In this document: positions 1-15,491 of the stretch, in pieces
Layout of the letters: the number at the start of each line of letters is the position of its first letter
How positions within the stretch are numbered: position 1 is the first letter of the stretch
Assembly: GCF_000012545.1 (NCBI RefSeq)
Contig: NC_007681.1
Location: forward strand, 1,260,001-1,292,000
DNA length: 32,000 bases
Source: Methanosphaera stadtmanae DSM 3091
GTDB lineage: Archaea > Methanobacteriota > Methanobacteria > Methanobacteriales > Methanobacteriaceae
Direction: 5' to 3'
Program-made: the position numbers and the translations under genes
The notes under the pieces: generated by a model
What the model was told of the DNA's origin: nothing
What the model saw: only the letters and a program-made list of their open reading frames with translations
Databases searched by the model: none

Positions 1-2
1 AA

Positions 3-125
3 GAAACCACACCATTAGATACCAAACCTGAAGAGATTCAAAGTAGTGGTTCTGGATACCAGGAAAGAGGTAAAGTATACCAAGACCCAAGTACTGGAAA
101 ACTAGTTCTGGTTAAATCATCATGA
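3..125 (+). CDS. 3' end of an unidentified CDS truncated by the window edge
   Basis: Frame 3 is open from base 3 (ETTPLDTKPEEIQSSGSGYQERGKVYQDPSTGKLVLVKSS) to TGA at 123-125. It is less AT-rich than the spacer that follows. No family recognised. Confidence 0.35.
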   Translation, partial: ETTPLDTKPEEIQSSGSGYQERGKVYQDPSTGKLVLVKSS

Positions 126-947
126 AAAGAAAATACTATTTTTTGGATATGAATAGGACTTTCCTATTCAATATTTTTATATTATAAATAGATGATGAAA
201 TATTAAGTGTATATGTTATTTTTAAGAATAAATTTATTTTATAGAGGATTGATTAAAATGAAAGAGAGTAAATTAAGAACTTCAAAGAAAATTAATAGAA
301 ATTCTAATTATTTTACTAAAGAAAAACAAATAATAAGTATCATACTAAAATTATTGATAATATTTGTTTTAATTACAATTACAATAAATCTTATTAATTA
401 TATAAATATTTTACTAAACTAGAAAAATACTGTAATTTGTATAATAACATATATATTAAATAGTTACTTTTTCAAAAAATAATAAAACTTAGTTTAATAA
501 TGAACAATGACTTAAATAATCTCCAAAAACTTAAAATAAATATACTTATTTTATAATATTTTTATTAATTATTTAAAGTAAATGATACTTTAATACAAAG
601 TATCATACAACCTTCAAGATATTTTTCAAATATTGACTTATCCTTATATAAACCACCAAAATAAACAATAAAATTAGAAAAATAGGTTTTTTTAACAAAC
701 ACCTGACATAAACTAAAGAAAATAAAAAATAGTTTTAAAAAATATACAACACTCATAATAAATAGAATTTATTCTTATTTTTTTAAAAATAACAAAGTAA
801 AACAATAAAATAAAGTAAAATTTATATTAAATTTATAAAAGTTAAATAGTTTAGTGAATAAATATATCAATTATCATGAATTATCTTGATATGAAAAAAT
901 TATCTTAAATTAAGATATTTGTGAAAAGTAACAATAAAGGTGAAAAA

Positions 948-3900
948 ATGAAGACCATAAATAAATTTCTATTGGCAACAATAGTTTTATTAATGGTTGG
1001 CTTAGGTTGTGCAGCTGCTGCAGATAGTTCAAGTAATTCAACTATAGCAACTGTACATGAAACTTCAAGCCTAAGTGGTGATATCCAAAGTAGTTCAATA
1101 GAACCTACTTTAACAAAGGATATTCAAACAACTAATAAAGATAATATAAAAGAAAAAACTTCAGATAGTAGTACCAAAAGTATTCAAACAAAGGATACGC
1201 AAAAGAAAACTACATCTAACAGTTTTTCAAAAGATGTAACAAATAAAAATACACAAGTATCTAAAAATGTAGAAAAAGATACTAAAATCATAGAAACAAC
1301 GAAAAAAGAATCTAATACACAACCAACAAAAACAGTGAAAAAAGCAACAGTTACAACAATAACTCCCGATGACTATGATTTATATTTCAGATATAATCCT
1401 AAAACTAATAAAACAGAATCTACAACACTTGTATCTGCAGGAGATGTGTTAGATTTACAGGGAACATTTAAAAATGTTAACTTCACAATAGATAAATCTA
1501 AAATAACAATAACAAGTATTGGTAAAACTGCAAAGTTATACAACTGTACAGTAAATGTTTTAGGACTTCAAAGTGCAGGTTCATCTGTACATAACCTAAC
1601 AATTACTAATAACAACTATTATGGTAGTGGAATCTACTTAAATGTTACAAAAAATATTCTTGTAGCTAACAACACCATACATGTATGGGGACCATTTGCA
1701 TTTGCTCTACCATGTGATAGAGTAAATAATAGTTTAGTTATTGATAATTATCTTGAAACATCATGCCGTGAAGATACAAATCGTACACACACAGCAACAC
1801 CATGGGGATTATCCTACTATAACAACATAGTAAACAACACCGTAGTAAGTGACCAAGCAAATGGTATTTACTTCAGTTTATGGGGATCAGGATTATTCCA
1901 AGGAGGATACTGTGATTACAACAATGTAACAGGTAATGATGTTACAGGAGGAGATACTTCCTGGAGTTACACCATACAAATTATGGGTACAGGTAACATC
2001 ATATCCTACAACAATGTTAGAGGTGGATATAGAGGAATATCTACACAAGACTTTACAAACAACACCATTATATTCAATGAAGTAAATGGTACAGCACAAG
2101 GTATTTTTGCTTGTGAAGGAGCTATAGTAGCTAACAACACTGTACATGTAAATGGTACAACTACTGGTGTTGAAGTTGGTGGAGATGGAGCAATTATTGA
2201 AAATAACACTATAACATCCAATTCTGGATCAGCTCTTGTAATTAGTGCAAGTAATATTAATATTAAGAACAATTACTTATGGTCCACATTAGGTTATGGT
2301 ATATACTCAAAAGGTAAATACATTAACCTCAACATTTCAGACAACACCATTATCAGTGGAAAAATAGGAATTCTCTTTAGAAAACAATCCTCAAGTAAAA
2401 AAATAAACTATGTAAACGTGACTAAAAATGTAATTAAATCAGATGGCGAATATGCTATTGACTTTAGTGAAGCTGGAGCAAGAAATGAAGTAGATGTACA
2501 CATACTCGTTTCAGAATCAAATGTATTGACTTCAAAAGCAGGAACTGGTCTTGAAAAAGCATATCTTCCACCTTCAGTAGGAGGAGGAGACGACCTACCT
2601 GACTCTAATAAAACATACACAGTAACAGATAGTACTTATTACACATACTTCACAGATGAACAATCAATAAACACGAAAAAAGTACTTAAAAATGATACTA
2701 TTATATTAAAAGGTGAATTTAAAAATAAAAACTTCACATTTACACAAAAAACCCATGTTATTGGAGATAATTGTATAATACGTAATGGTACAATAACATT
2801 CACAGGTGATGCTTCTGCATCTACATTAAAAAATGTTAAAATCATAAACTATGATAAAAATAGTTTAAATAGACATGGAGTTGAGGTTATTGATGTAAAC
2901 AACGTTGTAATAAACAATGTAAATATTAATAACTATGATCCATGGGAAAGCTTTGGTATATTCATATGTTCATCAAATGGTAATACACTTACAAACAATG
3001 TAATTTACACCTCTGGTGACTATGTAAATTATGGAATATTTGTTTATGCATCAGACTTAAATAATTTAAGTAAAAACCGCGTAACACTAAATCAAAGTAG
3101 TAAACCTATAGAGTATGCTGATGAAATAATGTTCAATGATAGAATAGGACTTATTAAAGAAGTACTTCATAACTATGGAATAATTCTTATGTATTCATCA
3201 TACAACACAGTAGATCAAAACATTGTAAATGGTACATCACAATTTAAAACATACCAATTCCCAGTAGAAGAATGTAAAAACAGTATTGTGGGAATTGATG
3301 TATACTATGATAGTAATTACAATACAATTACAAGAAACAACGTTACAATAAACAGTTATGGACCATATGAATATGGAATGGGAGTATTAGGAGCACCATG
3401 GGGAACAGCAATCTCTACATTAAATGCTACAAATAACACATTTGCACATAACAATGTACGTGTAAATGGTGGATACTTTGCTACAGGTTTCATTGCTGGT
3501 CTTAACAGTATAAACACAACCATATATAACAATACATTTGATGTACATGCCCTACATAACAGTACACAAAAAGGTGATTATACATATGGTTTAACACTTG
3601 AAAGTTGTACTAATACCACATTTATAAATAACACAATAAATGCTTCAGCTGCATCATTATACACTGTAGAATTATTTGGTACTAAAAAAAATATTATAAC
3701 AAATAATTACTTCTATGGAGAAGCAACAAATCCATATGGAATTGCAGGATATCAATCTAGTGATAATACAATAACAAACAACACCATAATTATGAGACAA
3801 TTTAATTATGGACCAACCAGTTCTGCTCTACATGCTGATGTTATACCATATGGTAAAGAAGGTATAATGTTAATGAAAGACAGTTACAGAAACAAAATAA

Positions 3901-6713
3901 TGTACAATACAATCAATACCAATGCTACAGAATATGCAGTAAAACTAACAGAACAAGCAATTAACACAACTGTCAAAGAAAATTCAATAATATCTTCAAA
4001 ATATCATGGAGATGATGCTGTATCTAATGGACATAAAACAAATATTGTATCAAATAACTTCAAATACTTCACAAATATAACAGCATATCCATCAACAGGT
4101 ACAGTTGGATATCCTATTACAATTAAAGCAAAAGTAACTTCAACTACAAGTGATGTTTCAAATTTAACAGTAACATTTAGAATTGGATTAACACAACTTG
4201 GTAGTGCTAAAGTTAACAATGGAATTGCACAAATTACTGTAAATTCAACTAGTTTCCTTAAACCTACTATATATACCTTGATTGCAACTGTTGGTGGAAC
4301 TAACTTCCAAAATGCAACTTCCACATCCCAATTATCCTTAAACAAAACAATGTCATCAAGTACAGTTACTGTTTCAAAAGTTAATGGATTAATAGGATCT
4401 AAGGTAAATATGGATGTAGATGTAACTGATTCCAATGGTGCTAAGTTAGAAGGAAATGTTACATTTAAACTTGAAAATACTGTATTATCCACTATGAAAC
4501 TCACTCTTGGAAGAGCAACATACACCTACACCATACCTGCAAATGCAAAAAGTGGTGTATATACAATTACAGTATTATATAGTGGAGATGAAAACCATAA
4601 TGCCGGTGTTGGAACTAATACTTTAGGTATTCAAACAAAAACAATTGCAACAGTAAGTAGTGTTAATGGTAAAATTGGAAATCCAACAAAATTCACTGCA
4701 AAATTAACATCAAATGGTGTTCCATTAACTAATGGAAAAGTAACATTCCTTGTAGATAACGTTGTTGCTGGTACAAGTAATATAAACAAAGGTGTAGCTA
4801 CATATAACTATGTTGTACCTACAAACTTCACTGCTAAAAATTATACTATAACAGTAAAATACGATGGAAATGATACATTAACATCTGCTAGTGCAAGTAA
4901 TAAATTAGTTGTAACCAAATCAATAAGTAAAATAACATATACTCCAGTAGCAGTTGTTGTTAGTGATGATGTTGTTTTAACAGTGAAAGTAACTAATAGA
5001 ACTAATGGACTTGTTGCAAAAAGTGGAAGAGTAAGTATTAAACTTAATAATAATTACTTAAAATATAGTAATGGTTCCATAATATATGGAAATGTAAATA
5101 AAGAAGGTAATGCTATATTTACATTCACAGCACCAGCACAGTACAGTGGTTTAAATAATATTACATTCTACTATGAAGGTAATGATCAATTCCTTGCAAG
5201 TTCACAAAAATATACCAATGGATTTATTGTAAGAAATCCTTCAAAAATCACAGTAAGAGAATCTGCAGGTAAAATAGGTAATACTGCAACACTTAAAGCA
5301 ATAGTAACAGATGATAGAAACATGGGTATAGCAAAAGGACAAGTAACCTTTAAAATAAATAATCAAGTTATAAAAACAGTGAATATTGACAAAGGAATTG
5401 CAACAATAAAATACAACATACCTACAACATTTAAAGCAGGAACTTATAAGATATCTGCTGTTTATAACTTCAATAAAATATCCATACAAAATACAAGTAA
5501 ACTTACTGTACAAAAAGTGATAAGTAAAATATCATACACCCCTACAACTCAAGTTGTTGGTGATAAAGCTATTTTAAAAATCAAAGTAACAAATAGAACT
5601 AATGGATTCACTGCTAAAAATGGAAACATATCCATTATGATTAACAAGGAAACATTAAGAAATAGTGATAACAGTGTAAAAATTGCAAAAGTAGGTGCAG
5701 ATGGTTATGCTACATATGTATTTACTATTCCTAAGAAATTTATTGGAGTAAATAACATTACAATTAAATATTCTGGTGATGATCAATTCCTTGCAAGTCA
5801 AACAACTATTAAAAACGGATTTATTGTAAGAAATCCTTCAAAAATCACAGTAAGAGAATCTGCAGGTAAAATAGGTAATACTGCAACACTTAAAGCAATA
5901 GTAACAGATGATAGAAACATGGGTATAGCAAAAGGACAAGTAACCTTTAAAATAAATAATCAAGTTATAAAAACAGTGAATATTGACAAAGGAATTGCAA
6001 CAATAAAATACAACATACCTACAACATTTAAAGCAGGAACTTATAAGATATCTGCTGTTTATAACTTCAATAAAATATCCATACAAAATACAAGTAAACT
6101 TACTGTACAAAAAGTGATAAGTAAAATATCATACACCCCTACAACTCAAGTTGTTGGTGATAAAGCTATTTTAAAAATCAAAGTAACAAATAGAACTAAT
6201 GGATTCACTGCTAAAAATGGAAACATATCCATTATGATTAACAAGGAAACATTAAGAAATAGTGATAACAGTGTAAAAATTGCAAAAGTAGGTGCAGATG
6301 GTTATGCTACATATGTATTTACTATTCCTAAGAAATTTATTGGAGTAAATAACATTACAATTAAATATTCTGGTGATGATCAATTCCTTGCAAGTCAAAC
6401 AACTATTAAAAACGGTTTTATTGTAAGAAATCCTTCAAAAGTTGTTGTAAGAAACGCTGTTGGTAAAGTAGGTTCTACTGTAACATTAAATGCTACAGTA
6501 ATAGATGATAAAAAAATAGTTATACTTAAAGGACAAGTAACTTTCAAAGTAAACAATCAAATTGTAAAAACAGTTAATATAACAAATGGAACAGCAACCA
6601 CACCATACACTATTCCAAAAACTTTTAATACAGGAAACTATACAATAAATGCAGTTTACACACTTAACAGTATAAAATTAGAAAATAATGGAACTCTCAC
6701 CGTTAAAACATGA
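948..6713 (+). CDS. Giant secreted Asn/Thr-rich adhesin-like protein (two parallel beta-helix blocks plus a C-terminal array of about 9 Ig-like domains)
   Basis: The ORF is open from 921, but ATG 948 is preceded by GGTGA (939-943) and yields a signal peptide, MKTINKFLLATIVLLMVGLGCAAAAD. This is followed by an S/T/K-rich linker. The beta-helix region shows periodic NNT(I/V)/NN(Y/F) coils typical of PbH1-type right-handed beta-helices. From about residue 1040 there are repeated domains of about 95-100 aa with the pattern G..V.L.A.V....G..V..G.V.F.(V/I)N......V..G.A...Y.IP.....G.Y.I...Y. Confidence 0.88.
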   Translation: MKTINKFLLATIVLLMVGLGCAAAADSSSNSTIATVHETSSLSGDIQSSSIEPTLTKDIQTTNKDNIKEKTSDSSTKSIQTKDTQKKTTSNSFSKDVTNKNTQVSKNVEKDTKIIETTKKESNTQPTKTVKKATVTTITPDDYDLYFRYNPKTNKTESTTLVSAGDVLDLQGTFKNVNFTIDKSKITITSIGKTAKLYNCTVNVLGLQSAGSSVHNLTITNNNYYGSGIYLNVTKNILVANNTIHVWGPFAFALPCDRVNNSLVIDNYLETSCREDTNRTHTATPWGLSYYNNIVNNTVVSDQANGIYFSLWGSGLFQGGYCDYNNVTGNDVTGGDTSWSYTIQIMGTGNIISYNNVRGGYRGISTQDFTNNTIIFNEVNGTAQGIFACEGAIVANNTVHVNGTTTGVEVGGDGAIIENNTITSNSGSALVISASNINIKNNYLWSTLGYGIYSKGKYINLNISDNTIISGKIGILFRKQSSSKKINYVNVTKNVIKSDGEYAIDFSEAGARNEVDVHILVSESNVLTSKAGTGLEKAYLPPSVGGGDDLPDSNKTYTVTDSTYYTYFTDEQSINTKKVLKNDTIILKGEFKNKNFTFTQKTHVIGDNCIIRNGTITFTGDASASTLKNVKIINYDKNSLNRHGVEVIDVNNVVINNVNINNYDPWESFGIFICSSNGNTLTNNVIYTSGDYVNYGIFVYASDLNNLSKNRVTLNQSSKPIEYADEIMFNDRIGLIKEVLHNYGIILMYSSYNTVDQNIVNGTSQFKTYQFPVEECKNSIVGIDVYYDSNYNTITRNNVTINSYGPYEYGMGVLGAPWGTAISTLNATNNTFAHNNVRVNGGYFATGFIAGLNSINTTIYNNTFDVHALHNSTQKGDYTYGLTLESCTNTTFINNTINASAASLYTVELFGTKKNIITNNYFYGEATNPYGIAGYQSSDNTITNNTIIMRQFNYGPTSSALHADVIPYGKEGIMLMKDSYRNKIMYNTINTNATEYAVKLTEQAINTTVKENSIISSKYHGDDAVSNGHKTNIVSNNFKYFTNITAYPSTGTVGYPITIKAKVTSTTSDVSNLTVTFRIGLTQLGSAKVNNGIAQITVNSTSFLKPTIYTLIATVGGTNFQNATSTSQLSLNKTMSSSTVTVSKVNGLIGSKVNMDVDVTDSNGAKLEGNVTFKLENTVLSTMKLTLGRATYTYTIPANAKSGVYTITVLYSGDENHNAGVGTNTLGIQTKTIATVSSVNGKIGNPTKFTAKLTSNGVPLTNGKVTFLVDNVVAGTSNINKGVATYNYVVPTNFTAKNYTITVKYDGNDTLTSASASNKLVVTKSISKITYTPVAVVVSDDVVLTVKVTNRTNGLVAKSGRVSIKLNNNYLKYSNGSIIYGNVNKEGNAIFTFTAPAQYSGLNNITFYYEGNDQFLASSQKYTNGFIVRNPSKITVRESAGKIGNTATLKAIVTDDRNMGIAKGQVTFKINNQVIKTVNIDKGIATIKYNIPTTFKAGTYKISAVYNFNKISIQNTSKLTVQKVISKISYTPTTQVVGDKAILKIKVTNRTNGFTAKNGNISIMINKETLRNSDNSVKIAKVGADGYATYVFTIPKKFIGVNNITIKYSGDDQFLASQTTIKNGFIVRNPSKITVRESAGKIGNTATLKAIVTDDRNMGIAKGQVTFKINNQVIKTVNIDKGIATIKYNIPTTFKAGTYKISAVYNFNKISIQNTSKLTVQKVISKISYTPTTQVVGDKAILKIKVTNRTNGFTAKNGNISIMINKETLRNSDNSVKIAKVGADGYATYVFTIPKKFIGVNNITIKYSGDDQFLASQTTIKNGFIVRNPSKVVVRNAVGKVGSTVTLNATVIDDKKIVILKGQVTFKVNNQIVKTVNITNGTATTPYTIPKTFNTGNYTINAVYTLNSIKLENNGTLTVKT
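5220..6439 (+). repeat. Perfect in-frame tandem duplication, 597-bp unit (199 aa, two Ig-like domains), about 2.04 copies
   Basis: Bases 5220-5816 and 5817-6413 read identically base for base by eye. The identical antisense ORFs at 5241-5513 and 5838-6110 in the ORF track confirm the 597-bp offset. The junction sequence GGATTTATTGTAAGAAATCCTTCAAAA occurs at 5220 and 5817, and with one mismatch at 6414. Diverged copies of the two domains flank the array. Confidence 0.95.
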
Positions 6714-6773
6714 ACTATGCAAATAATAGGAAATTATTATATGAAATTATTATGATAATTTTCTTATTTTCTA

Positions 6774-6790
6774 TTTTTTATTTTTTTTTT
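6774..6790 (+). terminator. Oligo-T tract (T6 then T10), candidate archaeal intrinsic terminator
   Basis: ctaTTTTTTaTTTTTTTTTT lies about 60 nt after the stop at 6713. Archaeal RNAP terminates at T-runs. The AT-rich background lowers specificity. Confidence 0.35.
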
Positions 6791-6961
6791 AATGATACTA
6801 ATTCGTTATTAAAAATATTTTTCAAAATCATATTATAATAAAATATATTATTCATAAAAATTATAATAAATATTATATAATCAGGTATTTTTAATTAAAA
6901 TTAAATTATTTTGTTTATTTTTAAGTACTCGATTATATTTTAATAAAAAGGAGATTATACA

Positions 6962-9523
6962 ATGTATAATAAAAGAATTTGCATTCTTTTAGTAACTACA
7001 TTTATCATATTACTTGCAGGATTCACTGCTATTTCTGCAGCAGATGTAAATGATACTTCTGTAGATACTAGCTCCCTATCATCTACTACACAAGTAGACA
7101 AAAGCCCTGTTTTAACTACTGTGGCTGATAATGATAATAATATCAAAACAGATAGGGATGATGCAATAAAAACTCAACTAAAAACTACTAAAAAAGTAGA
7201 TACAGAATCTTATGTTACTACTAAAGACTCTACAAAAACAAAAAATACAAACAAAACTATTAAAACAGAAAACCCAACAATAACAGTAACAGATGGAAAT
7301 TATGGAAAATACTTTGATGATGATGGAACACGTAACATCAACCCCAATACCACAGTAATTTTAAATGGTGCATTCTACAATAAAACATTCATAATTGATC
7401 AGGAATTTATCACTTTAACAGGAAACAATGCAACATTACACAATGGACATATATATGTTACAGATATGGCAAGTAATTCCACAATTTCTAACCTAGTTAT
7501 TAATAGTACTGGTATGGAAAATGTTATTAACAACGAAGCATGGGATATTACAATAAAAAACAATAAAATTACACTTACAAATAGTGAAGGTATTACAGAA
7601 GGTATTACAAATAATGGAGATAATGTACTTATTGTAAATAACACTGTTGATGTATATGGTCCAGCTAAGGATATAGACTGGACTGGTGGACCCAGAGAAG
7701 GATTAGCTCTAACCTTTGCAATATTCAATGATGGTGGAAATAATGTTATAATTGAAAATAACACTGCAAGAAGTGGAAGATCAAAAGATGGTGAAGATAA
7801 CCCCTTTGGAACCATTGATGGTATTGAATTAAAAAGTGGAAATAATGTAACAGTATCAAACAACTACATAGAAGTAAGTGGAGCAAGATTTGTATATGGA
7901 CTTAATGCTTTATCTGAAGTTTATAATGTAGTTCTATCAAATAATACTATTAATGTTACAAGTGAAAGATATATTGCTGGTATACAAATAGGTAACTCTG
8001 CAAGAAATTGTAGTATTTTAGATAATAAAATCTATGGTGTATGTTACAATACAACAATATTCACACAAGATAATGAAGCACTTGCATTTGGTATTATCAC
8101 AACAAGTATGGGTGGAAGTGAATCTAGAAATATGACTGTAGCAGGAAATATAATGAATTTAAATGCTACAATTGTATATGGTATGGAAATTTATACAACA
8201 TATGATACTATCATTGATAAAAACTTAGTTAATGCTATAGGAAATTATAGTATGGGTATGAGTTTAGCTCATTCTCCAAATTCAATAGTAACTAACAATG
8301 TATTTAATACTACAGGAAATAGTAATATTCCTATTAATCCTATTGTAGAAGAAATTGCACCTGCAAATACAGGTATCCAAATACAACAAAATTCTACAAA
8401 TGCATACATAGCAAACAATATTGTTATAACTACAGATGCTGGTAACAATGCCAAAGCAGTGAATATTGAAACTACAAACAATGTAGCAATTATTAATAAC
8501 ACATTATTTGCTAATGGTAAAACTGGTGATGATGCTGTAAATGCATCTAGTAACCTAATAAATATTACAGTAAATGATAATCATGGACCTATTACCAAAT
8601 ATGATGCAATGGTTATATTAAATATTCCAAAAACAATTTCTACAGGAAGTACTTTAAATTTAAATTTCACTGTAAAAGATAAAGAAACTGAAAAATTAAT
8701 TAATGGTAAAGCTATAGTTAAAATCAATGGTGTAACATTAAAAGATGATGATGGTGAAATAATCAAACTTAATGTTGTAAATGGTATTGCTAATTTATCA
8801 TATATATTAAAAGGTTATAGTGCTAAAGAAGCAAAAGTAACTATAGTCTTTGCTAACAGCACATATAATAGAGCTGAAAGTACTGGTATGTTAAATATTA
8901 CTAAAACCAATGTTAAACTCGAAAGCAAAGATATGACAGTTTATACTGGTGAAACAATAACAATTAACCAAACATTATTTGATTCAAATAATAATCCAAT
9001 TTATGGAAATACAACTGTAGCAGTAAAAATTAATGGTGTAACTGTTAAAAATACTAAAATTGTTAATGGAAATTTATTAGTTAATATTACTGTTCCTTCA
9101 ATTAAAGCAGGAAAAAATGTTTTAACAATTATTCTTGGAGAAAATAATAGATATAATTCTGTTTCAGTAAATAGTACACTTACTGTTCTCAAACAAGATC
9201 CTGTAATTAAAATTGAAAAAATAACTGCAAAACCTGGAGAATATGTAACATTAAAAGCAACAATTGTTTCAAATGTTACTAAAACACCAGTTACTTCTGG
9301 TAATTATGTATTTAAAATTAATGGTATGACTGTTAATAATACTGATGAATATACCTTTGAACAAGTAACTGTTCAAAATATTACAAATGGAATTGCAACA
9401 CTTAGTACATATATGGATATTTCAGCTAATGATGGAGTCTATAATGTAACTGTTGTATATTCAGGTAATAATCATATTAACTCAGGAAGAAGTACTGAAA
9501 GTTGTTTAATAATAAAAGCTTAA
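6962..9523 (+). CDS. Secreted Asn/Thr-rich adhesin-like protein (beta-helix block plus about 3 C-terminal Ig-like domains)
   Basis: AGGAG at 6948-6952 precedes ATG 6962. The signal peptide ends in AISAADV. The module ITVTDGNYGKYFDDDG is followed by NN(T/V)-periodic beta-helix coils. The C-terminal repeats resemble those of the first adhesin. Confidence 0.88.
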   Translation: MYNKRICILLVTTFIILLAGFTAISAADVNDTSVDTSSLSSTTQVDKSPVLTTVADNDNNIKTDRDDAIKTQLKTTKKVDTESYVTTKDSTKTKNTNKTIKTENPTITVTDGNYGKYFDDDGTRNINPNTTVILNGAFYNKTFIIDQEFITLTGNNATLHNGHIYVTDMASNSTISNLVINSTGMENVINNEAWDITIKNNKITLTNSEGITEGITNNGDNVLIVNNTVDVYGPAKDIDWTGGPREGLALTFAIFNDGGNNVIIENNTARSGRSKDGEDNPFGTIDGIELKSGNNVTVSNNYIEVSGARFVYGLNALSEVYNVVLSNNTINVTSERYIAGIQIGNSARNCSILDNKIYGVCYNTTIFTQDNEALAFGIITTSMGGSESRNMTVAGNIMNLNATIVYGMEIYTTYDTIIDKNLVNAIGNYSMGMSLAHSPNSIVTNNVFNTTGNSNIPINPIVEEIAPANTGIQIQQNSTNAYIANNIVITTDAGNNAKAVNIETTNNVAIINNTLFANGKTGDDAVNASSNLINITVNDNHGPITKYDAMVILNIPKTISTGSTLNLNFTVKDKETEKLINGKAIVKINGVTLKDDDGEIIKLNVVNGIANLSYILKGYSAKEAKVTIVFANSTYNRAESTGMLNITKTNVKLESKDMTVYTGETITINQTLFDSNNNPIYGNTTVAVKINGVTVKNTKIVNGNLLVNITVPSIKAGKNVLTIILGENNRYNSVSVNSTLTVLKQDPVIKIEKITAKPGEYVTLKATIVSNVTKTPVTSGNYVFKINGMTVNNTDEYTFEQVTVQNITNGIATLSTYMDISANDGVYNVTVVYSGNNHINSGRSTESCLIIKA

Positions 9524-9528
9524 TATAC

Positions 9529-9550
9529 TTTTTTCTTTTTTATTTTTTTT
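9529..9550 (+). terminator. Oligo-T tracts, candidate terminator
   Basis: TTTTTTcTTTTTTaTTTTTTTT begins 6 nt after the stop at 9523. Confidence 0.35.
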
Positions 9551-9755
9551 AAAAAAAATAAATAAAACCTTAAACTTATTTTATAATCCTCAAAATACCA
9601 TAGAACTTTTTTTTAAATTTAAAAAAAACCAAAATTATATAAAGAATATAATACTAATTACTATTAGTGTATTCTTATTCAATATTTTTGAACTAAATTA
9701 ATGATTTTTTTAAGAATTGTTGAATACACTAACAAAAAAAAGAGAGTAATATGTG

Positions 9756-12700
9756 ATGAAAATTAAGACCTTTTCATTATGTATGATATTCTTAGTTCTC
9801 TTAGTATGTACAACAGTGCCAGCAAGTGAATCTACAGATATACCAGTACATCAGAGTTCAATTTCAACATATGAAATTCATGAATTAACAAGTAACATGT
9901 CAACAAGTAACATATCAACAAGTAACATATCCAGTTCATCCAGTATTAAAACAGTAAAAGAGAGTTCACAACAAACAAGTGTAAAGATAACAACAAATAA
10001 AAAATCAGATACAAATCAAGTAACTACTAGTAATAATGTGGCAAAAAAAACTACTTCTTCAAAAGCAAGTACTACCCAAAGTAGTACAAAAGCAAGTAGT
10101 AAAGCAAAAGCAAGTACTACTAAAAATAATTCAGTACAAGAAGTTAGTTTAAACACTACACAACCATCAATAAAAGAGGCAGAAACAATAAAGCAGTTAT
10201 CTGCAACAAAAAATATGTCCTCACTAAAACAATTAACATCATTAAAGCAAGCTCAAAACAAGTATAACTTAGAAGGTAAAGTAACTTGTGTTTACAATAA
10301 ATCTTCTGATAGTTATGTTGGTGATGAAGAGGATGCTTTAGGTGTTGGAGGTGCTGTGATAACAGTAACTAATAAAAGTAAAGTTATTGCAAAGGTTACA
10401 TCAGACTCTAATGGAAACTATGTTATAAAAAACTTAGCTCCAGGACTTTATACAGTTAAATTTAAGTATGGAACCTATGCAGTAGGTGAAGAGGATATAC
10501 GTATAATTAACACCACAGAACGGTTTAATTATGTGTTTATACCTGATCTTGCTATTATCACATACTCTGGAAGTACTAATGATGGTCAAAGAAATAAATT
10601 TGACGCATTAAGAAAACTTAGTGATAGATTTTATTTCCTAGAAAGCTATAATCTAAATAGTTCATACGATGTATCTCATCAATGGATGTTAGATTATGCA
10701 AACTTTATTCTAGTAGATATGTATAGTAAAGGACAGGGATTTGGAGTAGATATAGATGCTATTAAAAATTCACCTGCTTCACAACACAACAGAGTTGCAT
10801 ATACTTTTGGTATATTTGATCAAATGTTATTACAAGAACTAGGTTGGGGATTCCTTGGAGTTAATCCTGTTGAATCCATAGAAAATACCTATGTTGGATC
10901 ATATTGGCAAGCTGAAGCTATAAAAGATGCTACAGTAGTTAATACCAATATGAAAAACTTGTATCATTATATATTATATTTACTTGGAGAAAGTGACTAC
11001 AACCCAACTAGAACAGATAGTGGAACACCTGTTTTAGCTGGACCACAATGGGGTGTTTATTACCCAGGATATAAAATGTCTGTTCCTACTCCAAGCAATA
11101 AATTGATAAATAAATGGATACAACAAGCACCAGGTTATAACAATGATGGAGCTGGAAGTCTAAATTGGATGACAGAATATTATAATCCATGGATTCTAGA
11201 AAATCAGAAACCTGTGAATGTATTCAGAAAATTTGAGAATTGGTACAATAAACATGTAAATATTAAAGGATCATTTGTTGTTATAATAAGTTATTATCAG
11301 ACAACAACAGAAGTTGAAGCTTTAATTAAAGAATTTGAAAGACAAGGAAGAGCAGCATTTTGTTTATATCAATATGCTACCACACATCCTACTATGACCG
11401 AACTATTAGAAACAGCAGTTACTGATAGAAAAGGTTTCTCAAGAGGAATTGTTGCTGGAAGTTCTTTATATTCATGGTCAACTTCATATACTCAAATGGG
11501 AACAAATACAACTATAAATGCATATAAAAACATGAATATTACAATTTTGAATGCTTTAAGTGGAATAAGTGAATACAGTTATCATAGTCAATATGGTCCT
11601 CAAAATGAATGGACATATAAGGTAACAATATCCCAATTTGAAGGAATAATAGGTGCCCTACCTATTTCATACATTTCAAATACAACTAAATCAACTGTTA
11701 TGATTGACAGTGGTGTTAAAAAACACGTTGAATTAGTTAATGGTTGGGCTAAACTTAAAGAAACTCAAAATTCCAAGAAGAAAATAGCTATTGTACTATA
11801 TGACTATCCACCAGGTAAAGCTAATATTGGTGCATCTTATTTAGATGTATTTACCAGTACACATGATTTACTTGAACAATTAGCCGATGCTGGTTATGAT
11901 ATTGGAATGAAGAAAAGTGAAATTCCTACAACAGAGGAGTTAACTACAATGATTTTCAATATTGGTAACAAAGGTAATTGGGCTTCAGGATATCTTAAAT
12001 CATATGTAAAAGATAACTATGATGAACTTGTCAAAAATCATCAGCTAATCAGTAAATCTGAATTCCAATTAATGTTCAATCAATTACCTACAAATTTACA
12101 ACAACAACTTGTAAACTCATGGGGTAAAGGATTAGGTAATGGATCTATGATCTATAATAACAGTTACCTAGTAATTCCTGGATTGTACTTTGGAAATGTG
12201 TTTATTACTGTTCAACCTGCAAGGGGTTGGGAATCAGTAACAGACTATCATAGTCCTGATTTAGCACCACCACAACAATATGTGGCATTTTACAAGTATC
12301 TTACTAGTTATTATCTGGGAAAAGAAAATAACAGTGTGGATGCAATGATAAGTATGGGAACACACGGAACACTTGAATGGTTACCTGGACGTACTTTAGG
12401 ACTCCAAGAATCAGATTGGCCATTCCAATTAATCAAAACACCGATTATTTACCCATATATTGTATCTAACCCTGGGGAAGGTATGACTGCTAAAGAAAGA
12501 AGTTTTGCACAGGTAATTACACACATGACACCTGTAACTACTGCATCAACACTTTATGGTGAATATTCTAAATTAAGTGAAGCTATATCAGATTACACAG
12601 CTAATAAAAAATTAGGTGATGCAAGCAATATGGCTTACTATAAAGAATTAATATTAAACCTTACAAGTGTAAATAGTTCATTTTCAGCACCAACATTTAC

Positions 12701-15491
12701 AAAGATGAGCCAATACATTGATGAATATAACTATGCAGTTTCAGTAAATGATACTGCATTAATAAATGAAAAAAGAGCAGCTATACTTAGCTTATCTGCA
12801 TCATTAAATAAACCAATGGAAAACTACTTCAATCATACATCTGCAAAAAATATGACTTTTGATGAGTATATAAAAAGAATGTATGAATATGTAAATAGTG
12901 ATGAAGCTTTCGATGCATGGCTAGAAACTATACATGCTGTTATTGAAGGATTAAGTTCTGATACAATAACATATGGTGTTCATAAAATTGGTTATGTATG
13001 GAACAGTACTGAAATGATCGATGGAATAAGTGTTATTGGTGCTTCAAGAACCAATATCATGCAAAACATCATGAATCTTTACTTTAATATCAATGGAAGT
13101 TATTATGAAAAAGTACAAGACCGTGACTTCAAACCTTATCAAACAGCAATTGAAGCAACACTTAACAACATTGTAACAAGCTTAGTATTAGATACCACAC
13201 TTGAAAATGTTGAAAAAATAGCTAAAGAAAAAAATCAAGATAAAAACAGTAGTTTCTATCAAGATCTTTATGATATTATGAATCTTATTAATAGTGTAAG
13301 AGACAATCATGAATGGGAAGCTATTATGACAGCTCTTGGTGGCGGATACGTTGCTCCTGGTCTTTCAGGAGAACCTGCAGCAAGTGATGTTCTACCAACA
13401 GGACGTTCAATGTATAACAGTGATACAACTAAAATGCCATCTAAAGCTGCATGGTCATCAGCAGTAAACTCTATTAATCAAATATTAGTTAAATATATGA
13501 AAGATCTTGGAGAAGATACCTATCCAGAATTAGTTGCAGAAGTTATATGGGGTACAGAAGTACTTCGTACAGAAGGTATAAGTCTTGCACAATACCTATA
13601 CTTACTTGGAGTAAAACCTACATGGGATAGAACAGGTAAAGTAAATGGTACTGAAGTTATACCTCTTGATGAACTTACAATAACTATTGATGGAACAGTA
13701 TATCAACGTCCAAGAATAGATGTTTTTGCTACAATTGTATCAAACAACCCATACTGGCTAAGTTTATTAACAAGTGCAGTAGATCAGGTAAATGCTTTAA
13801 ATGAAAGTTTTGAAGATAACTATGTTAAAAAACATTATGCTAAATTCCCAAGTACATTCAGATTATTTGGACTTAATGGAAACAAATTAGAAGGTACCGG
13901 AGTTTCAGATAGAATAAATAACATTGGTAATTTAACCCAGTCATCAAAAAGTGTGCAGGAAGAAATAGCTAGTGTATATGAATCTAGACTTAACAATGCA
14001 TGGACTGTTGATGCTAATGGTAATATTGTTGTTAAAACAAATCAGACAGAATTATTTGTATGGTTATTATCCAACGTAAATCTAATAATCCAAGATTTAG
14101 ATAGTACATGGAGATATCTTGATTCAGATGATTATACTGATTGGTTTGGTGGTCTTCTAAATTCAGCAAACATACATGGTGCAACACCAAGTACAATGCT
14201 TCTTGATATACGTAACAGAAACAATATAGTTTCAAATACATTATCCCAAGAAGTAAGTAAAGAAATAAGAACTACCTTAATAAATCCAAAATGGTTACAA
14301 GGTATGACATCTTCTGTTGGTGGATGGAACCAAATGGCTGCTAACTGGGAAAACCTACATAAAACAATATTCACAACACAAGGTTATCTTGAAGATGAAA
14401 ATGGTAAAGCTATTTTACAAACTAACAAAGGAAACAACACAGGTGCAGTTAGTAATGAATTATATACTCAAGCAGTGAAAAATCTTGTAACTAGTGAATA
14501 TTTAGTTGTAGATGCTGATTATAAGTCTTATGCTATGCAATCCATGATTGGTTGGTCCTTAACATTATTAAAAGATGGTTATTGGAAAACAACCGATAAA
14601 AAATTAGTATACGATCTTGTAAAAACATATACACGTATTGTAGTAAAATACGGTGTTGCATGTTGTCACCACACATGTGGTAACATAGAATTTAATAAAT
14701 GGATTATTAAAACTGGAACTGCAATGGGTATTGATATGGCAGGTTATGCTAATGAAATGAATGCTGCAACAGAACAAGGACTTACTACTGGTCAAGGTAG
14801 TGGTAGTGGTGATGGAACTGGTTCTGGAAGTAGTGGTGGAACATCTAGTGATGGTGGAGATGGAGGAACTGCAATAGGTTCCGATTCTTTCAAAGATGGA
14901 GCAGATACTGGAAGTGTAGGTGGAATTGGATCATACACTGGAACAGGATCTTCTCAGTCAACAACTGGTAATGCTAATGGTGAACTTGCAGGAGTAGCTT
15001 CTAACGACAATGGTGCAAATTCTGGTAATGGAACAAACAATAACAACAATGGAAACAACACTGGAAATCAAGACACTAATGGTACAAATACAGGTTCTAA
15101 TTCCACTTCCAACAATAATGGTAATGCTGATGGTAATTCCAACAGTACTGGAAGCGGTGATAGTACAGGTAATGCAGATTCAGGTAATGCTGATGGTGCA
15201 TCTACTGGAAATAGTACTCAAAAAAATAGTGGAAGTTCTGATGTTGGTACATCAAGTACTGGTGCATCCTCTGCAGGATCAGCAGCAGCAAGTAGTTCCT
15301 CAGCAGCAAGTAGTTCCTCAGCAGCTGTTGCTGCAACTGCAACTGCAACTGCTTACGAAGTAAGTGAGAAAAGTGGAGGAAAAGCTGCTTCAAATAAATC
15401 AGCTGTTTCATTCGGTTATCTTGTAGCTATTGTTTTAATAGCACTTCTTTTCTTTGTTGGATTCAAAAGAAAAGATATTCGTGGAGATTAA
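9756..15491 (+). CDS. CobN/ChlH (Mg/Co-chelatase large subunit) family protein with signal peptide, CarboxypepD_reg-like domain, low-complexity stalk and C-terminal TM anchor
   Basis: The ORF is open from GTG 9753; ATG is at 9756. The N-terminus MKIKTFSLCMIFLVLLVCTTVPASES looks like a signal peptide, followed by an S/T-rich linker. A beta-sandwich-like segment follows: GKVTCVY...GGAVITVTNKSKVIAKVTSDSNGNYVIKNLAPGLYTVKFKYG. CobN/ChlH hallmark motifs are present: SMGTHGTLEWLPG, LGGGYVAPGLSGEPAASDVLPTGRSMYNSD, and VIWGTEVLRTEGISLAQYLYLLGVKP...RPRIDVF. Bases 14790-15353 encode a G/S/N/T/D-rich tract. Bases 15405-15464 encode the helix VSFGYLVAIVLIALLFFVGF, followed by KRKDIRGD and the stop. Confidence 0.88.
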   Translation: MKIKTFSLCMIFLVLLVCTTVPASESTDIPVHQSSISTYEIHELTSNMSTSNISTSNISSSSSIKTVKESSQQTSVKITTNKKSDTNQVTTSNNVAKKTTSSKASTTQSSTKASSKAKASTTKNNSVQEVSLNTTQPSIKEAETIKQLSATKNMSSLKQLTSLKQAQNKYNLEGKVTCVYNKSSDSYVGDEEDALGVGGAVITVTNKSKVIAKVTSDSNGNYVIKNLAPGLYTVKFKYGTYAVGEEDIRIINTTERFNYVFIPDLAIITYSGSTNDGQRNKFDALRKLSDRFYFLESYNLNSSYDVSHQWMLDYANFILVDMYSKGQGFGVDIDAIKNSPASQHNRVAYTFGIFDQMLLQELGWGFLGVNPVESIENTYVGSYWQAEAIKDATVVNTNMKNLYHYILYLLGESDYNPTRTDSGTPVLAGPQWGVYYPGYKMSVPTPSNKLINKWIQQAPGYNNDGAGSLNWMTEYYNPWILENQKPVNVFRKFENWYNKHVNIKGSFVVIISYYQTTTEVEALIKEFERQGRAAFCLYQYATTHPTMTELLETAVTDRKGFSRGIVAGSSLYSWSTSYTQMGTNTTINAYKNMNITILNALSGISEYSYHSQYGPQNEWTYKVTISQFEGIIGALPISYISNTTKSTVMIDSGVKKHVELVNGWAKLKETQNSKKKIAIVLYDYPPGKANIGASYLDVFTSTHDLLEQLADAGYDIGMKKSEIPTTEELTTMIFNIGNKGNWASGYLKSYVKDNYDELVKNHQLISKSEFQLMFNQLPTNLQQQLVNSWGKGLGNGSMIYNNSYLVIPGLYFGNVFITVQPARGWESVTDYHSPDLAPPQQYVAFYKYLTSYYLGKENNSVDAMISMGTHGTLEWLPGRTLGLQESDWPFQLIKTPIIYPYIVSNPGEGMTAKERSFAQVITHMTPVTTASTLYGEYSKLSEAISDYTANKKLGDASNMAYYKELILNLTSVNSSFSAPTFTKMSQYIDEYNYAVSVNDTALINEKRAAILSLSASLNKPMENYFNHTSAKNMTFDEYIKRMYEYVNSDEAFDAWLETIHAVIEGLSSDTITYGVHKIGYVWNSTEMIDGISVIGASRTNIMQNIMNLYFNINGSYYEKVQDRDFKPYQTAIEATLNNIVTSLVLDTTLENVEKIAKEKNQDKNSSFYQDLYDIMNLINSVRDNHEWEAIMTALGGGYVAPGLSGEPAASDVLPTGRSMYNSDTTKMPSKAAWSSAVNSINQILVKYMKDLGEDTYPELVAEVIWGTEVLRTEGISLAQYLYLLGVKPTWDRTGKVNGTEVIPLDELTITIDGTVYQRPRIDVFATIVSNNPYWLSLLTSAVDQVNALNESFEDNYVKKHYAKFPSTFRLFGLNGNKLEGTGVSDRINNIGNLTQSSKSVQEEIASVYESRLNNAWTVDANGNIVVKTNQTELFVWLLSNVNLIIQDLDSTWRYLDSDDYTDWFGGLLNSANIHGATPSTMLLDIRNRNNIVSNTLSQEVSKEIRTTLINPKWLQGMTSSVGGWNQMAANWENLHKTIFTTQGYLEDENGKAILQTNKGNNTGAVSNELYTQAVKNLVTSEYLVVDADYKSYAMQSMIGWSLTLLKDGYWKTTDKKLVYDLVKTYTRIVVKYGVACCHHTCGNIEFNKWIIKTGTAMGIDMAGYANEMNAATEQGLTTGQGSGSGDGTGSGSSGGTSSDGGDGGTAIGSDSFKDGADTGSVGGIGSYTGTGSSQSTTGNANGELAGVASNDNGANSGNGTNNNNNGNNTGNQDTNGTNTGSNSTSNNNGNADGNSNSTGSGDSTGNADSGNADGASTGNSTQKNSGSSDVGTSSTGASSAGSAAASSSSAASSSSAAVAATATATAYEVSEKSGGKAASNKSAVSFGYLVAIVLIALLFFVGFKRKDIRGD
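9888..9932 (+). repeat. In-frame 15-bp tandem repeat x3 (TSN[M/I]S) in the CobN-like N-terminal linker
   Basis: The three consecutive units are acaagtaacatgtca, acaagtaacatatca and acaagtaacatatcc. Confidence 0.9.

Follow-up and report, generated by a model that had tools for sequence, protein, structure and literature searches.

In the gut methanogen Methanosphaera stadtmanae, how many copies of a duplicated domain pair does a surface protein gene carry, and is that number the same in all strains? The question is raised by a gene for an adhesin-like protein in a 32,000-base window of strain DSM 3091 (bases 1260001-1292000 of the reference genome, which is a single contig of 1,767,403 bases with 27.6% G+C). 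Two consecutive 597-base units of this gene are identical, and an initial annotation of the window proposed that their number differs between strains. The present comparison with public genomes and metagenome contigs supports, with a probability of about 0.85, the reading that this archaeal adhesin-like surface protein is truly polymorphic in length and that its length is unstable. The gene and the parts of it around the duplication are as follows.

948..6713, + strand: gene for the adhesin-like surface protein, 1921 residues, Asn/Thr-rich (from Pfam matches and composition)
4917..5219, + strand: Y0, an older, diverged copy of the Y domain (Big_3_5, E=1.9e-7)
5220..5816, + strand: first copy of the unit, X1 (5220-5516) and Y1 (5517-5816), 199 residues
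5817..6413, + strand: second copy of the unit, X2 (5817-6113) and Y2 (6114-6413), the same as the first copy and missing from one-unit alleles
6414..6710, + strand: X3, an older, diverged copy of X and the final domain (Big_3_5, E=7e-8), followed by the stop codon 6711-6713

The duplication and its alleles

Self-comparison of the window at a lag of 597 bases gave an unbroken match of 599 bases (w[i] = w[i+597] for all i from 5220 to 5818), and the reported identity of 5220-5816 with 5817-6413 at every base was thus confirmed. The run is ended by a mismatch of A at 5819 with T at 6416, after which 24 further bases match, up to 5843/6440. An exact match of 599 bases cannot be a chance event in DNA of 27.7% G+C, and only one perfect tandem repeat in the 1.77-Mb genome is longer. 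The duplication is in frame, as had been stated: 5220 is the start of a codon, and residues 1434-1632 equal residues 1633-1831 in the frame counted from GTG 921. Each unit of 199 residues was also correctly described as a pair of immunoglobulin-like (Ig-like) domains, X and Y each matching Big_3_5 with E values from 1e-10 to 2e-7. Domain identities agreed with the proposed order Y0-X1-Y1-X2-Y2-X3, in which diverged copies flank the identical ones. Y0 and Y1 are 65% identical in nucleotides and 48% in amino acids, X2 and X3 are 71% and 58% identical (58% of amino acids also for X3 against X1), and X and Y share 30-32% of their amino acids. The older flanking copies have the same 597-base period as the identical units.

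The protein cluster around the gene contained 211 members, among them the 1921-residue form and many variants of 1722 residues. The longer form was found in the reference and in three metagenome contigs from different samples (L006-L008). The 1722-residue forms lack exactly one unit (1921 - 199) and elsewhere differ from the reference at 1-8 residues. More than 100 contigs carry the one-unit, 1722-residue gene, and the reference protein minus one unit was found on at least 24 contigs. The predicted variation in copy number between strains is therefore observed, both forms being present and on shared haplotypes. An 876-kb contig has one unit; a single-base insertion breaks a neighbouring gene there, and the contig appears to be a long-read assembly. 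A 24-mer scan of a metagenome contig collection gave only two more contigs, both with one unit.

Comparison with orthologues had been proposed in the initial annotation. The orthologue of another Methanosphaera species (L034, 1693 residues) was collinear from end to end with the one-unit form, at 49% identity, so that one unit is the ancestral architecture. The closest orthologue in another species, L032 (G002:C1:87272-94258), shares 63% identity as far as the end of Y0. Its X-Y Ig part is replaced by another C-terminal module of GGAI/Pmp-like beta-helix repeats, and the replacement indicates that the tail has been exchanged between species.

Break points in assemblies and the anatomy of the junctions

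Short-read assembly of the locus had been expected to fail, and the Logan contigs, whose k=31 assembly graph does not resolve repeats, made it possible to state beforehand where. A two-unit allele with GGT at its middle junction was predicted to give a left-hand contig ending at 5252 (product, residues 1-1435) and a right-hand contig starting at 6411 (product, the last 100 residues). A one-unit genome, without a shared 30-mer, was predicted to give no break. In the look-up, seven contigs ended exactly at 5252 on the background of the reference protein and four more on an N1353K background (11 in all), and nine contigs started exactly at 6411. Runs SRR20550364 and SRR30236030 were present on both sides of the break. 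The contig ends were checked base by base; the left-hand contigs represented seven DNA haplotypes, and one of these contigs was identical to the reference over 4305 bases. By this measure at least 15 further listed runs hold alleles with at least two units, while more than 100 contigs cross both 5252 and 6411 unbroken. The anticipated difficulty for short-read assemblies is thus located at exactly two bases. The 1921-residue form was never reported from Logan, so resources of this kind under-represent the two-unit form; a rough, uncalibrated estimate from contig counts puts its share at 10-30%, depending on the background. Exact look-up of the 207-residue product expected from the contig of the unit itself gave no record. 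A GGA junction of the reference type should cause a break at 5249, but neither this break nor one on the P0019 background was on record. Exact look-ups of two-unit proteins on two other backgrounds also found none, a weak negative since Logan cannot assemble such forms.

These results bear on two explanations by assembly error. The first, also raised in the initial annotation, is that a single X-Y unit was wrongly doubled when the reference was assembled. Perfect repeats are well known to cause misassembly, one unit is what most public contigs show, and the base at 5819 is unique to the reference. Three independent metagenome assemblies, however, carry the two-unit gene together with the junction from the end of Y to the start of X; this junction is absent from any one-unit genome, so an assembler cannot invent it. 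Twenty Logan contigs moreover break where such a junction makes the k=31 graph branch, and inflation of the reference is regarded as excluded for practical purposes. The reverse explanation is that all strains have at least two units and that assembly has collapsed them wherever a contig shows one. Assemblers differ in their handling of loops, and two of the two-unit metagenome contigs each have a one-unit twin without any difference over 8.5-9.5 kb. A de Bruijn assembler without repeat resolution is nevertheless expected to break at a loop-back junction, yet more than 100 contigs run through; the 876-kb contig, with its long-read-like errors, has one unit, and the orthologue is one-unit-like. 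General collapse is accordingly considered very improbable.

The junctions themselves indicate how the second unit may have arisen. A sequence of about 27 bp, GGATTTATTGTAAGAAATCCTTCAAAA, had been described at all three boundaries. It is exact at 5220 and 5817, but at 6414 only 26 of the 27 bases agree, GGT standing in place of GGA. The stretch common to all three junctions is a 24-mer.

5223..5246, + strand: 24-base junction core, copy a, at the Y0/X1 boundary, preceded by GGA
5820..5843, + strand: 24-base junction core, the middle recombinant copy, preceded by GGA here and by GGT in every other two-unit sequence
6417..6440, + strand: 24-base junction core, copy b, at the Y2/X3 boundary, preceded by GGT
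5819, + strand: synonymous base A, private to the reference; all other two-unit evidence implies T

The 24-mer encodes the inter-domain linker FIVRNPSK, and the break falls within this linker (TIKN/GFIVRNPSK/ITV). All one-unit loci have the junction twice, 597 bases apart, as GGA plus the 24-mer at the boundary of Y0 and X and as GGT plus the 24-mer at the boundary of Y and X3. The short repeat and its single mismatch are therefore older than the duplication. In the two-unit contigs L006-L008 the three junctions read GGA/GGT/GGT, the middle one being a hybrid, and at lag 597 they match themselves exactly over 621 bases. This is 597+24, precisely the length that an unequal exchange or template switch within the 24-mer would yield. 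At 5819, T was found in the three two-unit metagenome contigs and is implied by all break-point contigs, including those of strains otherwise equal to the reference. The A of the reference could have arisen as a private change or by short conversion from the first junction, or it could be an error in the consensus of the original assembly.

The length of the match also bears on the possibility that a six-domain array is old and that its middle was homogenised by gene conversion. Y0 and X3 flank the identical part at the same 597-base period, and conversion is common in such arrays. Against this, the identical stretch has the length of one period with the junction homology added (621 bases in L006-L008; 599+24 in the window), whereas a conversion tract could be of any length, and one-unit alleles are numerous and collinear with the orthologue of the other species. 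Homogenisation of an old array is held to be very improbable.

Under the preferred reading of a real and unstable length polymorphism, the ancestral gene would have ended in the Ig series D1-D2-D3-Y0-X-Y-X3 (D1-D3 being older Ig-like domains, listed below), with the identical 24-base stretch at the Y0/X and Y/X3 boundaries, 597 bases apart. Unequal homologous exchange or replication slippage in the 24-mer would duplicate the X-Y pair and give Y0-X1-Y1-X2-Y2-X3, which raises the number of Ig domains from seven to nine. Two whole domains are added at linker boundaries, neighbouring domains stay only about 30% identical, and the distal tail is lengthened. The perfect 597-base repeats could then recombine, so that a unit would be lost again or, in principle, further units gained, and recombination between strains would move the unit between backgrounds. 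Such loss, gain and transfer would place both states on the same haplotypes across human-gut samples. The structure, the junctions, the alleles with one and two units and their distribution over haplotypes are shown directly; we infer the molecular pathway (recombination or slippage), the rate of instability, display at the surface and whatever consequences there may be for binding or immune recognition. A switch of a site-specific or programmed type was considered and rejected: the junction consists of a simple direct repeat within a translated linker, without inverted repeats, and the flanking gene calls of the retrieved contigs include no recombinase.

Copy number across haplotypes

Loci were compared by pairwise BLAST and anchored alignment, one unit being removed from two-unit sequences before the comparison. 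The two-unit contig L007 and the one-unit contig L022 showed 0 differences over 8527 bases, and two-unit L006 and one-unit L025 showed 0 differences over 9544 bases. L008, with two units, differed from the reference by one substitution and one change in poly-A length, position 5819 lying within the removed copy. Unrelated pairs showed 5-20 differences. As two-unit and one-unit contigs can be identical over 8.5-9.5 kb, copy number either changes repeatedly or spreads by recombination. Under either origin, the copy state is altered at least as quickly as single substitutions appear in about 9 kb. A tree of 17 loci required three copy-number changes in every bootstrap replicate, and the two-unit label clustered on the tree no more than shuffled labels did. 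Sites 2936 and 4619, both synonymous, occurred in all four allele combinations among the 17 sequences, a sign that the gene has undergone recombination or recurrent mutation.

Diversity was very low: the 17 sequences, compared over 7.2 kb, varied at 25 sites. The identity of the two copies alone therefore does not date the duplication as very recent; identical copies are expected even if the polymorphism is as old as the sampled haplotypes. The initial annotation had called the event a very recent unequal crossover or slippage. An origin by exchange or slippage is supported by the 621-base match and the parental junctions, but its recency cannot be dated.

Instead of arising repeatedly, the two-unit state could go back to a single ancient duplication, kept as a balanced polymorphism and spread by homologous recombination between strains. 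All non-reference two-unit sequences have the same GGT hybrid junction, all four combinations are found at 2936/4619, and transfer tracts of 1.2-3 kb would be traceless given the positions of the flanking single-nucleotide polymorphisms. The shared junction is uninformative, however, since a crossover anywhere in the 24-mer yields the same one. Frequent loss is to be expected of perfect 597-base repeats, and in no haplotype have the copies diverged. A single origin without recurrence is given an appreciable but minor weight.

Several points weigh against a real and unstable polymorphism of a surface protein. The data fit independent duplications and one origin followed by recombination and loss alike. 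The GGA middle junction of the reference needs an extra step beyond a crossover inside the 24-mer. Some one-unit contigs could represent mixed populations, in which the assembler pruned a minority junction. A three-unit protein was not found by exact look-up, which counts for little since Logan cannot assemble such forms. The surface location and adhesive function of this particular protein are putative.

Architecture of the protein and its relatives

The start of the open reading frame was GTG 921 in the list of frames, against ATG 948 (MKTINK...) in the database proteins of 1921 residues, of which Asn and Thr make up 25%. Upstream of the Ig-like domains described above, the gene is composed as follows.

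948..1370, + strand: N-terminal hydrophobic helix KFLLATIVLLMVGLGCAAA (signal or membrane anchor), then a Ser/Thr/Lys-rich low-complexity linker (from the translation)
1400..4070, + strand: right-handed beta-helix region or regions (PF05048, PF13229)
4074..4916, + strand: D1 (4074-4349), D2 (4350-4637) and D3 (4638-4916), three older Ig-like domains, 25-41% identical to the other domains

The helix KFLLATIVLLMVGLGCAAA comprises residues 6-24 of the translation and may either anchor the protein in the membrane at its N-terminus or be a cleaved signal; the product of 948..1370 had no match in the Pfam search. In the GTG frame, Pfam gave PF05048 (NosD) at residues 334-504 (E=7e-8) and PF13229 (Beta_helix) at residues 878-1047 (E=3e-21), with three Beta_helix stretches in total. 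PF16640 (Big_3_5) matched nine stretches of the protein with E=1.9e-57 and 192 bits, well past the gathering cut-off of 35.5. Single Ig-like domains matched with E from 7e-11 to 2e-7. Taken alone, X1 (42.4 bits) and Y1 (38.1 bits) were above the cut-off, and Y0 (32.0 bits) and X3 (33.4 bits) were slightly under it. A single-sequence AlphaFold2 model of Y0-X1-Y1 was all-beta, but its mean predicted local distance difference test score (pLDDT) of 57 was too poor for a comparison of folds. A sequence search of the PDB found no close solved relative, only marginal matches (E about 0.02) to phage tail tube proteins.

The Ig array extends to the stop codon at 6711, and the sole hydrophobic segment is N-terminal. 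If the N-terminal helix is the anchor, the array would therefore form a distal C-terminal tail, with the beta-helix nearer to the cell, and the variation in stalk length foreseen in the initial annotation is doubtful. An Ig-like domain is about 4 nm long, and the added pair would extend reach, by roughly 8 nm, or valency. The protein would be displayed at the surface, and the name adhesin-like is given for the architecture, as read from the sequence.

The upstream gene order is kept in all M. stadtmanae contigs with flanks (window 1-15491 and L006-L026): DUF2162, MotA/ExbB-like, DUF2149 and a 54-residue gene. Downstream, the same contigs have a gene for an 853-residue beta-helix protein, which in the window is followed by a surface CobN-like gene. 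Between these two, the former ending at 9523 and the latter starting at 9753, a poly-A run at about 9550 varies between strains; L006 and L008 have one A more than the reference, and other loci differ further.

The architecture agrees with subgroup IA of the adhesin-like proteins of M. stadtmanae and Methanobrevibacter, which have a membrane anchor, a right-handed beta-helix and archaeal Big domains (PMC11532034, PMC13658579). The present protein has the N-terminal helix, the beta-helix, the Ig-like repeats and the Asn/Thr-rich composition. Adhesin-like proteins are described as anchored N-terminally (PMC11532034), and the number of their Ig-like domains ranges from 1 to 44 (PMC11532034, PMC13658579). 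Those two studies compare proteins and species, whereas the polymorphism of one and two units described here is that of one gene within a species. Literature searches found no description of a one-unit and two-unit polymorphism or of the junction anatomy, the two studies included.

The nearest described parallel is found in the Periscope Proteins of bacteria (SasG/Aap, Rib/alpha C, Sgo_0707, Esp and CdrA; Whelan et al. 2021), in which the number of repeats varies between close strains, a variation ascribed to intragenic recombination (PMC8201768). The class was described in bacteria only, and the word archaea is absent from the paper (PMC8201768). As in that class, a surface protein is built of tandem folded domains with very high DNA identity (here the units are 100% identical), and the number of repeats differs among strains of one species. 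SasG alternates E and G5 domains (PMC8201768), which is comparable to the X-Y pair. There are also clear differences. In the Periscope Proteins the array forms a stalk that links a wall anchor at the C-terminus to a ligand-binding head at the N-terminus; the present protein has an N-terminal hydrophobic anchor only, and its array is the free C-terminal end and would not be a stalk. Only one or two units were found here, in contrast to the long Periscope arrays, for which a rod-like shape is a feature.

Other perfect in-frame tandem repeats occur in the genome, around 891450 (period 273/546), 517259 (276), 905255 (285), 1058645 (276) and 275990 (189). Their repeat units mostly consist of a single Ig-like domain, and they lie in long open frames; four of the five are Asn/Thr-rich (N+T 25-27%), the frame at 275990 having 16%. 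One array has five or more identical copies of 91 residues. At least four Asn/Thr-rich genes besides the present one hold such arrays, in which the period is a single domain of 273-285 bases and the copy number reaches five or more, whereas the present array has a two-domain period and two copies. These arrays are likely to represent further copy-variable surface protein genes, and the same process is presumably at work in the other Ig arrays of the genome.

A further and more speculative reading is that the gene toggles between seven and nine Ig domains so often that clonal lineages in different people differ, and that both lengths are kept by selection, for example through host antibody recognition or the binding of partner cells by this gut methanogen. 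The protein would then be an archaeal counterpart of the bacterial length-variable surface proteins. This reading, taken as a whole, is rather unlikely and is offered tentatively.

The phenomenon is an ordinary one of a familiar kind, well documented here in a less studied lineage. It provides an archaeal example in which the parental junctions, the recombinant junction and both the ancestral and the derived alleles are all visible in public data. Short-read assemblies break the gene at two predictable bases or show one form only, and catalogues of archaeal adhesin-like proteins from metagenome bins consequently under-report such alleles. The predicted break-point fragments offer a route to tandem-duplication alleles in unitig-style assemblies without recourse to reads. 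For the organism itself, the finding means that the adhesin-like repertoire of M. stadtmanae varies within the species in domain number.

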